Source: Spirochaetia bacterium
Lineage (GTDB): Bacteria > Spirochaetota > Spirochaetia > UBA9216
Assembly (NCBI GenBank): GCA_963675665.1
Contig: OY776510.1
Span: 3,552,001-3,616,000, forward strand
Length of the DNA stretch: 64,000 nt
Direction of reading: 5' to 3'
Both the position numbers and the translations under genes were made by a program. The notes under the pieces are model-generated. The model searched no databases and had not been told where the DNA came from. It worked only from the letters and a program-made list of their open reading frames with translations. Shown one piece after another: positions 1 to 2,742 of this stretch; positions within the stretch are counted from its first letter, which is position 1, and each line of letters begins with the position of its first letter.

Positions 1-1951
1 CATATACTTTCGCAAGCTTTTCAGCGTACTCGCCCGGTTCCGCAATATTTTCAAGCTGATCAAGAATTTTCTGCGGAAAAATATGGGAAAAAAGAGCATC
101 TTCCCGATCTTTCAAAAGGTTCTTTCTCATTACTTCTACAGCATGCGAATAATTATGCAATGTTTCTCTCATTTTTGAATGCTGGTTTTCGATAATTTCC
201 TGAGCACGTTCAAGTTCCCGGCCGGCACGATGGTCGGCCAGCGGCTTATCGTCAGAAAACTTCAGAATCTTTTCCGGAATAAATTCCGCTATGCCGTATC
301 TTTGAAACAGTCGGTCTTCAAGACTTACAAGAAAAAGGCTTTCGCCCGGATCTCCCTGACGGCCCGCTCTGCCGCGCAACTGATTATCAATACGCCGGCT
401 TTCGTGCCTGTTAAGGCTGATAACAATTAAGCCGCCCAGGCTGGTAACAAAATCTTCATCAACACGTTCGGGCCCGCCCAGCAAAATATCAGTGCCGCGG
501 CCGGCCATATTTGTCGAAACAGTTACGGCGCCGGGCATCCCTGCATCGGCAATAATAACAGCTTCTTCGGCATCATTAACTGCATTAAGCACATTATGTT
601 TTATACCTTCCGCCAGAAGCATTTCAGATACATGTTCAGATTCATAAACCGAAGCCGTGCCTATCAAAACCGGGCGACCGACAATATTATATTGCTTAAC
701 CTTTTTTAGAAACTCGGTATATTTGGCTGCTTTTGTTTTATAAATAAGATCGGGATTATCTTTTCTTATTTTCTGCATATGCTCAGGAATAATAAATGTT
801 TGCATTCCATACTTTTTATAAAATTCTAACGCAGCAGATTCTGCTGTTGCAGTCATTCCTGAAATATTCGGGTAAAGTTTGACGAAATTTTCAATTGTTA
901 TGCTTCCGCATATTTCTCCGTTATTATTTATACTCAATCCTTCCTTGGCTTCCAATGCCCGCTGTATTCCGAAAGGCCATTCTCTTTTTTCAGCAACACG
1001 GCCGGTCAGTTCATCAACGAGCTCGATTTTATCTCTTCTGACGATATAGTCAATATTCCTGGAAAGAAGTTTTTCAGCATGCAATGCCACATTTACTCCT
1101 GCAACGGCATCCTGACCCTCAGGAGTTATTTCATCAACATCCAGTATATTGCAAATATGTTTTATTCCTTTTGATGTCAATGTACACTTTCGGCAAGTTC
1201 GATTAATTTGAAAATCTGTGCCGTCTTCAAGTTTATGGACTAATGACTCATAAAGAATGTGCCCGGCAAGTAAACCGTCTTTCTCTCTGGCAATAACAAG
1301 AGGAATTCGTGCTTCATCAATCAGAATGAAATCTGCTTCGTCTACAATGCAGTTTTCAAACCGTATATTAATTTTCAGTTTTTTGTTATACTGTATACAG
1401 TCGTTAAGATAATCAAAACCTGCCTGTTTGGCTGTAAGATATACAACATCAGCACGGTAGGCGGTTCTTTTCTCTTCAAGAGTCATTTTTTCATCAACAT
1501 AAGCGCAGTTTATTCCCAGTATGGAGTAAACTTCACCCATCCACATCGCATCACGTTTGGCAAGATATTCATTGGCTGTAAATATTGCAGTATGGGCTCC
1601 GTCTGCGGCATTAATAACAGCCGGAAAAACAGCAGCAATCGTTTTGCCTTCACCTGTTTCCATTTGTACAAGATTTTTTTCAAGCATTATTTTTCCGGCA
1701 ATTATCTGTTCAGAATAGGGTTGAATTCCGAGTGCCAGATTAACTGCTTTATTTATTGCAGCAAATTTTTCAGTCAAACTGCCGTTTGACATGTATTTTT
1801 TTATTACTTTTTTTGAGTTAGATGTAATTTTAATCGATTTTACTTTTTCCGCAAAATCAACATAATTCTGTAAATTAATATGTATGGGGATTCCCTTTGC
1901 ACGTTTGAGGGCATAATTCAACTGCTCTCCTGTGCTGTATCTGTTTTTCAT
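1..1951 (-). CDS. secA2: Accessory preprotein translocase ATPase, SecA paralog (SecA2-like); 3' end runs off the window
   Basis: Not in the ORF track because there is no stop in the window. Manual translation from ATG 1951 (SD GGAG upstream) gives MKNRYSTGEQLNYALKRAKGIPIHINLQNY..., Walker A METGEGKT (1640-1663), TANEYLAKRDA, IVDEADFILIDEARIPL (DEAD at 1331-1342), STNMAGRGTDILLGG and RHESRRIDNQLRGRAGRQGDPG; at least 650 codons. Confidence 0.93.
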   Translation of the reverse strand, partial: MKNRYSTGEQLNYALKRAKGIPIHINLQNYVDFAEKVKSIKITSNSKKVIKKYMSNGSLTEKFAAINKAVNLALGIQPYSEQIIAGKIMLEKNLVQMETGEGKTIAAVFPAVINAADGAHTAIFTANEYLAKRDAMWMGEVYSILGINCAYVDEKMTLEEKRTAYRADVVYLTAKQAGFDYLNDCIQYNKKLKINIRFENCIVDEADFILIDEARIPLVIAREKDGLLAGHILYESLVHKLEDGTDFQINRTCRKCTLTSKGIKHICNILDVDEITPEGQDAVAGVNVALHAEKLLSRNIDYIVRRDKIELVDELTGRVAEKREWPFGIQRALEAKEGLSINNNGEICGSITIENFVKLYPNISGMTATAESAALEFYKKYGMQTFIIPEHMQKIRKDNPDLIYKTKAAKYTEFLKKVKQYNIVGRPVLIGTASVYESEHVSEMLLAEGIKHNVLNAVNDAEEAVIIADAGMPGAVTVSTNMAGRGTDILLGGPERVDEDFVTSLGGLIVISLNRHESRRIDNQLRGRAGRQGDPGESLFLVSLEDRLFQRYGIAEFIPEKILKFSDDKPLADHRAGRELERAQEIIENQHSKMRETLHNYSHAVEVMRKNLLKDREDALFSHIFPQKILDQLENIAEPGEYAEKLAKVY

Positions 1952-2013
1952 TACTGCTCCCGGGCTTTAATTAATCTTTAGAGTCTTTATCAAGTCTTTT
2001 AACAGGAACAGTA
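1952..2013 (-). promoter_or_regulatory. Shine-Dalgarno-sequestering mRNA hairpin between the RAPP uORF and secA2
   Basis: mRNA 5'-UACUGUUCCUG-3' (2013-2003) pairs with 5'-CGGGAGCAGUA-3' (1962-1952): 11 contiguous pairs including 2 G-U, covering the GGAG SD. Confidence 0.75.
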
Positions 2014-2223
2014 TGGCGGGGCCCTTGTGTTTATATATATTGGAGATTCTTTCTTTCCGTAATAATTTTGGACAATTCCAGTTGCTGAAACAATCAATGC
2101 AAATAGAATGATGAAGATACCTGGTACCTCAGCATTAATACCGGAAACAGTTAACAGCATAATGACCAGAATTATTGCGGTAATAATTTTAATTATTTTT
2201 GAATGATGTATTCCGACCGGCAT
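1999..2223 (-). CDS. Putative translation-arrest (secretion monitor) leader peptide with signal peptide and C-terminal RAPP motif
   Basis: 74 aa; basic n-region, hydrophobic I13-V26, possible cleavage INA|E, second hydrophobic stretch 33-51, ends PIYINTRAPPYCSC; lies immediately upstream of secA2. Confidence 0.8.
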   Translation of the reverse strand: MPVGIHHSKIIKIITAIILVIMLLTVSGINAEVPGIFIILFALIVSATGIVQNYYGKKESPIYINTRAPPYCSC

Positions 2224-2259
2224 ATTATAAAATTAAACATTATATTCCGGGACCGTCAA
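2224..2259 (-). promoter_or_regulatory. Putative sigma70 promoter giving a leaderless transcript of the RAPP uORF-secA2 unit
   Basis: TTGACG (2259-2254)-N18-TAATTT-N6-ATG; no SD in front of the ATG. Confidence 0.5.
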
Positions 2260-2355
2260 GAAAAATATCCTTAAATTATGAATGAATATATGAAAGAATA
2301 AAAAATCGACGTATCGGGAAGTGATATGTTAAAATACATATAACGGAGGTAAAAG

Positions 2356-2742
2356 ATGAAAAAGCTTACGCAATATCTTGCATCAATCGGTGCTGATAAT
2401 TATTTTAACGAGATGCGCCTTTCGATAAACGAACTTTTTCTCAGCGATGATATTGAAATAAATCCTTACACCGAACATAACTGGGAACTTCGTAAAAATA
2501 AAGATGTTACAGTCGTAAATGCTATTCCGGACAGTGAAAAACAGGACAGGCTTTTCTGGGAAGAGTGGTACATATATCAAAATGAGGTTCATCACCACAT
2601 TCTTACAATCTGGAAACCGGCAACTTATAATGATATTTTCGACTGCCCCGAATCAGATGATATTCATCCAGAAGCCAGTTTCGGCAAACGCTGGTATGTT
2701 ATTGACGATCCTGACATGACGCCGCTGCTTCTGAGGAGATAA
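2356..2742 (+). CDS. Hypothetical protein (128 aa, Trp/His/acidic-rich)
   Basis: Strong SD GGAGG 6-7 nt upstream, clean ORF in an intergenic gap; no family recognised. Confidence 0.75.
   Translation: MKKLTQYLASIGADNYFNEMRLSINELFLSDDIEINPYTEHNWELRKNKDVTVVNAIPDSEKQDRLFWEEWYIYQNEVHHHILTIWKPATYNDIFDCPESDDIHPEASFGKRWYVIDDPDMTPLLLRR

Follow-up and report, generated by a model that had tools for sequence, protein, structure and literature searches.

In Escherichia coli, the uORF (upstream open reading frame) of the SecM-secA system lies directly ahead of secA, and a stem-loop that masks secA's Shine-Dalgarno (SD) sequence is disrupted by the stalled ribosome (PMC10987492, PMC7897499). When translated in vitro, RAPP-like uORFs ahead of secA or secDF stall their ribosomes (PMC10987492, PMC12992588), whose P and A sites then hold two Pro codons (PMC12992588). 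RAPP, RGPP and RSPP are arrest or arrest-permissive motifs (PMC10987492, PMC12992588), RSPP being reported as arrest-permissive (PMC12992588), and in uDF_RQH_Enterobacterales an SD-masking stem-loop is relieved by arrest (PMC10987492). Here we analyze a stretch of 64,000 nucleotides from a Spirochaetia bacterium (assembly GCA_963675665.1, contig OY776510.1, positions 3,552,001 to 3,616,000; hereafter the window), where the 5' part of a gene for a SecA paralog, here called secA2, is preceded on the minus strand by a 74-codon uORF ending in RAPP-YCSC. At a probability of roughly 70%, the uORF-secA2 pair is a SecM-like translational switch for the second SecA gene of this genome. What is shown, by computation, is the helix behind this reading, where it lies with respect to the motif, and that motif and complementarity recur in orthologs.

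The locus shares with SecM-secA a uORF with an N-terminal localization signal directly ahead of a secA gene, an R-A-x-P type motif close ahead of the stop whose Pro is predicted for the A site, and a stem-loop predicted to sequester the SD. It differs in that the uORF has no sequence similarity or family match to SecM, encodes 74 rather than 170 amino acids, carries RAPP instead of the SecM motif FxxxxWIxxxxGIRAGP, and has a hairpin of two transmembrane (TM) segments in place of a cleavable signal peptide. The regulated gene also differs, being an extra SecA paralog, while the canonical secA of this genome lacks such a uORF. Judged from its sequence, the uORF would be SecM-like in its working and not a member of the SecM family; its product is a candidate monitoring-substrate arrest peptide. 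The locus likewise resembles the RQH-family and orphan RAPP-RGPP uORFs of Fujiwara et al. 2024 (PMC10987492), which are small unannotated uORFs of sec genes that encode a TM signal and, near the C-terminus, a conserved R/Q/H-[AG]-P-P-like motif. The supplement of that study has one Spirochaetota row, Treponematales UBA12059, with a uORF ending in NPRAPPA before an 801-aa SecA-like gene, and therefore at least one member of the family has already been catalogued. The N-terminus of that 801-aa protein resembles the SecA2 type described here. By eye, GCUCC in the Ala-Pro codons of the UBA12059 uORF matches GGAGC at the SD. The main text of PMC10987492 neither mentions spirochaetes nor names such a group, and the parts of the study consulted describe no link to a SecA paralog, no RSPP variants and no recurrent pairing of stall site and SD. 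The string 'secA2' in that paper was discarded as an artefact, consisting of 'secA' and the superscript 24.

Other described systems are less alike in sequence or target. For ApdA, ApdP and ApcA (Sakiyama et al. 2021), the authors' structure prediction revealed no SD-sequestering hairpin, whereas a clear one is predicted here, and these uORFs sit ahead of secDF or yidC, not a secA paralog (PMC7897499). Control of a back-up paralog rather than the housekeeping copy would be a trait in common with Bacillus subtilis MifM-yidC2 and Vibrio VemP-secD2F2 (PMC10987492). Unlike the present locus, MifM and VemP have unrelated arrest sequences and act on YidC2 and SecDF2, and MifM has one TM segment and stalls at multiple sites. 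That segment anchors MifM in the membrane. As with the accessory SecA2 of mycobacteria and Gram-positives, the paralog is a second SecA ATPase beside the essential SecA. Unlike those systems, it falls below all SecA2 model cut-offs, and no secY2, asp or accessory secretion genes adjoin it. The scores obtained from the 650-aa part of the protein inside the window are 535.7 against a curated cut-off of 725 for TIGR04221, 483.5 against 930 for TIGR03714 and 567 against 862 for the SecA models. 'SecA2' is therefore used as a descriptive label only. A full-text literature search returned no paper describing arrest-peptide control of a SecA2-type gene or translation arrest at a spirochete secA. The kind of system is already known from SecM-secA, MifM-yidC2, VemP-secDF2 and the RQH family, and this locus adds a member.

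The predicted masking helix and the modelled stalled ribosome

The elements of the switch are the following.

2223..1999, minus strand: uORF, 74 codons plus stop (2001-1999), MPVGIHH...TRAPPYCSC, from the open reading frame (ORF) list
2068..2205, minus strand: hydrophobic hairpin, residues ~7-52, two TM-like segments with the turn SGINAEVPG between them, from a Kyte-Doolittle scan
2014..2025, minus strand: arrest motif R67-A68-P69-P70 (AGG GCC CCG CCA), from the sequence
2019-2017 and 2016-2014, minus strand: predicted stall, with CCG in the P site and CCA in the A site, geometry from PMC12992588
2005..2031, minus strand: footprint modelled for a stalled ribosome, starting 12 nt 5' of the P-site codon and running to +15 (the first base of that codon being +1), an assumption
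2003..2013, minus strand: 5' strand of the helix, UACUGUUCCUG, comprising the codons of Tyr71, Cys72 and Ser73 and two bases of Cys74, +7..+17 from the P site
1952..1962, minus strand: 3' strand of the helix, CGGGAGCAGUA, holding the secA2 SD GGGAG (1961-1957) together with the spacer that precedes the start codon
1963..2002, minus strand: helix loop of 40 nt, with the last base of Cys74, the uORF stop and the intergenic spacer, and only weak internal pairing predicted
1..1951, minus strand: 5' part (650 codons) of the SecA paralog gene secA2, ATG at 1951-1949, continuing past the window edge

The full uORF peptide is MPVGIHHSKIIKIITAIILVIMLLTVSGINAEVPGIFIILFALIVSATGIVQNYYGKKESPIYINTRAPPYCSC, followed by the stop. 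The codons of the YCSC tail, UAC UGU UCC UGU (2013-2002), come directly after RAPP, and the secA2 ATG lies 47 nt past the end of the uORF on the same strand, behind the SD and a 5-nt spacer. An earlier reading of this DNA, made from the sequence only, had claimed 11 uninterrupted pairs including two G-U between the tail codons and the SD region, and these can be read directly off the minus strand: U2013-A1952, A2012-U1953, C2011-G1954, U2010-A1955, G2009-C1956, U2008-G1957, U2007-A1958, C2006-G1959, C2005-G1960, U2004-G1961 and G2003-C1962, nine of them Watson-Crick. RNAfold, proposed there as a check, returns the 11-bp helix in both the minimum free energy (MFE) and the centroid structures of 111-nt and 201-nt folds. 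The proposed CAU/AUG extension stands in part: two further pairs (A2014-U1950 and C2015-G1949) can form across a bulged A1951, but they are absent from the MFE structure. In the predicted ensemble the helix bases have a probability of being unpaired near 0, and in these folds the helix masks the secA2 SD and extends to the base just ahead of the ATG. The 3' end of the genome's 16S rRNA, located via Rfam, reads ...CACCUCCUUUCU and carries the matching anti-SD CCUCC, which makes GGGAG plausible as an SD.

A reading of the helix as a terminator or attenuator was rejected, since it has no U run and is followed by AUGAAAAAC. We found no terminator-like sites on the minus strand between 1850 and 2800, and no Rfam families in 1800-2500 at E values up to 1. 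A long-range pairing that would enclose the entire switch is also predicted, between UCUCC of the uORF (2046-2042, Glu-Ser-Pro codons) and GGAGA inside secA2 (1930-1926, minus strand).

The predicted stall would place a ribosome on the helix's 5' strand: when the P site holds Pro69, the modelled footprint, extending to +15, covers 9 of the 11 bases of that strand. The limits of the footprint rest on toeprints at +16/17. We computed the cost of opening the ribosome binding site (RBS) over -14..+3; it drops from 8.5 kcal/mol in the free mRNA to 5.0 kcal/mol with a ribosome modelled at the stall site. The earlier expectation that a ribosome paused at RAP-P would cover the 5' strand and free the SD is thus borne out by the model. 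The effect depends on position: the cost stays at 7.7-9.0 kcal/mol with the ribosome at -30..-9, and falls to ~5.0 at -3..+9 only. Across 314 other same-strand gene junctions of the genome, the mean opening cost is 5.4 +/- 2.7 kcal/mol and 32 junctions reach 8.5, whereas the equivalent ribosome-induced change averages 0.02 +/- 1.08 kcal/mol and amounts to at least 3.5 in four.

Stalling, release by pulling force and induction of secA2 are steps that we infer from known RAPP-like systems. In free or freely translated mRNA, the post-RAPP codons (2013-2003) would pair with the SD and spacer (1962-1952) and keep secA2 initiation low. A uORF ribosome whose P and A sites hold Pro69 and Pro70 at the stall would occupy the 5' strand, leaving the SD and AUG about as accessible as in an average gene of this genome, and secA2 would be translated. 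At arrest the first TM segment would lie outside the exit tunnel and the second still inside, because the two segments end ~40 (by eye) and 17 residues from the P-site Pro69. Arrest would presumably be released by membrane targeting or insertion of the nascent hairpin, upon which the helix would re-form. Since targeting or insertion would end the arrest, synthesis of SecA2 would rise when that pathway is saturated or impaired.

Complementarity at the predicted stall site in orthologous loci

A search with the uORF peptide in 101 related genomes recovered only the peptide itself, the best other match (E 0.018) being in unrelated long ORFs. Orthologs were therefore sought through the SecA2 N-terminus, which gave a SecA2-type match in 14 of 401 genomes sampled from the class Spirochaetia (E <= 1e-42). 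Of the 14, one has the N-terminus of a canonical SecA and another runs off the end of its contig; excluding both left 12 usable loci, and a 13th, L077, was obtained from a metagenome through a 3-sequence alignment, the single-protein scan of metagenomes having given no match. Scanning genome contigs gave a single true ortholog, L064, whose DNA is that of L069; the four other matches were distant SecA genes, which were not used. The N-terminal profile matched the window's own genome and none of 400 other genomes sampled from the phylum, and within the genus one of five other genomes has the paralog. The distribution of the system is patchy.

In each of the 13 usable loci a hydrophobic uORF closes with R[AGS]PP and 2-5 variable residues, and the two-segment pattern recurs in each of them by hydropathy scan; the TM-like segments were called by Kyte-Doolittle hydropathy only. 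The other uORF residues are not alignable across orthologs, and the tails (YCSC, SRFL, VLR, RA, LTPAI, QR, VFS, RF, LHA, LC, LNS, IL and AL) share no sequence. In the R-x-P-P motifs, 11 of the 26 Pro codons are CCU/CCT, where Pro codon use in the adjacent secA2 genes would predict 4.4; CCU falls within the predicted SD pairing in only ~4 loci.

As tails and spacers cannot be aligned across genera, column-by-column covariation was replaced by per-locus folds and null models. In the modelled folds, the RBS becomes cheaper to open by at least 2.6 kcal/mol in 11 of the 13 loci when a ribosome sits at the motif (median 5.6), whereas with a ribosome 21-30 nt upstream this holds for one (median 0.1; paired Wilcoxon p=0.0002, the loci being related). 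The MFE partners of the RBS fall at -4..+19 in 10 loci. The anti-SD strand lies in the tail codons of L034, L035, L039, L070, L074 and L077, and is formed by the Pro-Pro codons themselves, not the tail, in L069, L071, L073 and L075. In two loci of the same genus both strands have changed together, with CCUCCG/CGGAGG in L071 and CCCUCU/AGAGGG in L073.

Complementarity was assessed against several null models, with p values combined by Fisher's method; the combined values overstate significance because the loci are related. Against other windows of each locus the combined p is 4e-8. It is 2.5e-5 when the Pro-Pro codons are held fixed (5e-4 without this locus), 5e-7 for the tails only (1e-5 without this locus), and 9e-5 against synonymous recodings. 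Once this locus is removed, the combined tests still give p of at most 5e-4. The sequence-only reading had taken the helix as independent support for the arrest-peptide model, and the maintenance of stall-site/RBS complementarity in orthologs by different sequences supports that view.

A close relative, X4, differs from the window at 31 positions in 701 nt, three of them in or beside the helix (minus strand). G1961A turns a U-G pair into U-A, C1963A adds a U2002-A pair, and G2009A breaks a G-C pair and changes Cys72 to Tyr (YCSC to YYSC). The helix stays in the MFE structure of X4, with an opening cost of 7.9 kcal/mol in free mRNA, against 8.2 for the window, and 5.1 with the stalled ribosome. 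That the helix and the opening costs survive these changes is consistent with selection for SD occlusion as a whole, not for every single pair. The change of Cys72 to Tyr argues against a Cys-based motif.

Objections and competing readings

Several results, in this paragraph and in the discussion of the alternatives, weigh against the SecM-like switch. Both the footprint limits and equilibrium folding are assumptions of the model. The hydrophobic stretch stops 17 residues ahead of Pro69, and in loci with both segments resolved the second TM segment ends 13-22 residues from the stall, whereas the published search used a spacer of more than 30 residues between localization signal and arrest site (PMC10987492), a distance that the first segment alone would give. 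The RBS partner lies at +20..+28, just after the stop, in L036 and at +14..+32 in L072, mostly outside the footprint in both, and is mixed in L038. Little de-repression is predicted for L072 (0.2 kcal/mol) and L074 (1.4 kcal/mol). In X4, one of the three changes disrupts a central pair, and the helix (2 changes in 22 nt) is no more conserved than its flanks (31 in 701).

The strongest alternative is plain translational coupling, in which the helix ties secA2 initiation to translation of the uORF and R-x-P-P causes at most a brief pause resolved by EF-P. Every ribosome that completes the uORF opens the helix too, and a degree of coupling could thus arise with no arrest at all; in the position scan the RBS is opened equally well from position 0 and from positions up to +9, and in L036 and L038 the anti-SD strand just past the stop is within reach of a terminating, not a stalled, ribosome. 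In the published Enterobacterales case, moreover, a non-arresting mutant still allowed higher expression than a premature stop did (PMC10987492). Against coupling alone, R[AGS]PP is kept in all 13 uORFs while their remaining residues cannot be aligned, and such motifs are reported to be refractory to EF-P and to rank among the most avoided tetrapeptides of bacterial proteomes (PMC12992588); the hydrophobic hairpin, for which coupling by itself has no need, is conserved too. We regard coupling without arrest as unlikely.

Complementarity by chance, with C/U-rich codons after Pro-Pro happening to match a purine-rich SD and having no regulatory role, is a still less probable explanation. Pro codons are intrinsically anti-SD-like, and for this locus alone synonymous recodings of the Pro-Pro and tail codons give only p=0.086. 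Whole-fragment folding energies are no better than those of shuffles (z -1.09 for 111 nt, +0.29 for 201 nt), and it is therefore the particular pairing that carries the argument. Between stall region and RBS the duplex has -17.2 kcal/mol against a mean of -6.6 for other windows of the locus (p=0.006, n=3634; tail alone, p=0.003). For a genomic background we drew up a crude gene list, 2551 ORFs that are 200 aa or longer and have an SD-like start. If any partner at -110..-21 is allowed, 86 of these starts (3.4%) do as well as -17.2 kcal/mol. The placement set beforehand by the stall site matters: at the same upstream distance only two starts reach this value, one of them secA2. Against chance there also stand the rarity of the modelled drop among the 314 control junctions and the recurrence of the signal in orthologs with different sequences when the Pro-Pro codons are fixed.

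It is very improbable that YCSC is a functional peptide feature for metal or redox sensing, or the uORF product a stable small membrane partner of SecA2, with RNA pairing secondary: Cys-x-Cys-like tails can bind metals, metal-responsive RAPP peptides have been discussed (copper and CruR being proposed in PMC12992588) and the two-TM hairpin is conserved across the family, but Cys occurs in the tails of only 2 of the 13 orthologs (YCSC and LC), tail length varies from 2 to 5 residues, the ~95%-identical X4 has Tyr at position 72, no Pfam or NCBIfam family matches the uORF, and the neighbors, a ribonucleotide reductase and an MFS transporter, are not metal-related. Because the tails are unlike and their Cys unconserved, the evidence supports RNA pairing, not metal binding, as what shapes the tail, in line with the earlier suggestion for YCSC.

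The SecA paralog, its surroundings and meaning

The genome holds two SecA genes, a canonical secA with a 947-aa frame and the paralog, which has 784 aa from its ATG in a 789-aa open frame and contains SecA_DEAD, PPXD, P-loop and partial wing/scaffold domains. No R[AGS]PP uORF lies within 600 nt upstream of the canonical secA. SecA2-type N-termini, aligned from the window (1951-1772) and 11 loci, share approximately YAL-x-RA-x-GI-x-IETDL-x-PY; the YAL-x-RA motif differs from the N-termini of the genome's canonical SecA and of L076. The next gene downstream of secA2 on the same strand encodes the ribonucleotide reductase large subunit (751 aa, L079 8267-10522), and a redoxin gene lies nearby on the opposite strand. 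A 128-aa ORF without Pfam or NCBIfam match (window 2356-2742, plus strand) is divergent from the uORF-secA2 unit.

The uORF start codons of this locus and of L035, L036, L039, L069 and L070 have no SD, and TATAAT-like boxes occur 0-15 nt before these ATGs (here ...TATAATGTTTAATTTTATAATATG, window 2224-2260, minus strand). The proximity of such boxes to SD-less starts suggests a very short leader or a leaderless mRNA. A consensus promoter scan found nothing on the minus strand. Upstream of the uORF, the relatives X4 and X5 are each 12 bases shorter, with gaps at 2277 and 2284 (window 2277-2295), in what is presumed to be the promoter region.

RAPP-type arrest peptides are widespread, and there are very few for which it has been shown how the stall is relayed to the gene downstream. 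Together with its 12 relatives, this locus provides a compact, testable example: 75 nt contain the stall site, anti-SD strand and SD, and the tail residues appear to be at liberty to adapt to what the RNA requires. The family-wide pattern makes the locus a good experimental model, and the switch fits a reporter construct of ~300 nt. We tentatively put forward a wider possibility: in Spirochaetia, an accessory SecA paralog may have a monitoring circuit of its own, not described before, in which ribosomes would stall at R[AGS]PP with the second TM segment in the tunnel, and the Pro-Pro codons together with the 2-5 free tail codons would supply the anti-SD strand, making motif and RNA switch one module. 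If this is true, peptide arrest and RNA occlusion co-evolve within ~20 nt, the uORF is the first known case of a SecA2-type gene being governed by an arrest peptide, and the arrangement could be a general design rule of RAPP leaders. For the spirochaetes, arrest-peptide control would be linked to an uncharacterized SecA paralog, with a hint as to when that paralog is needed.

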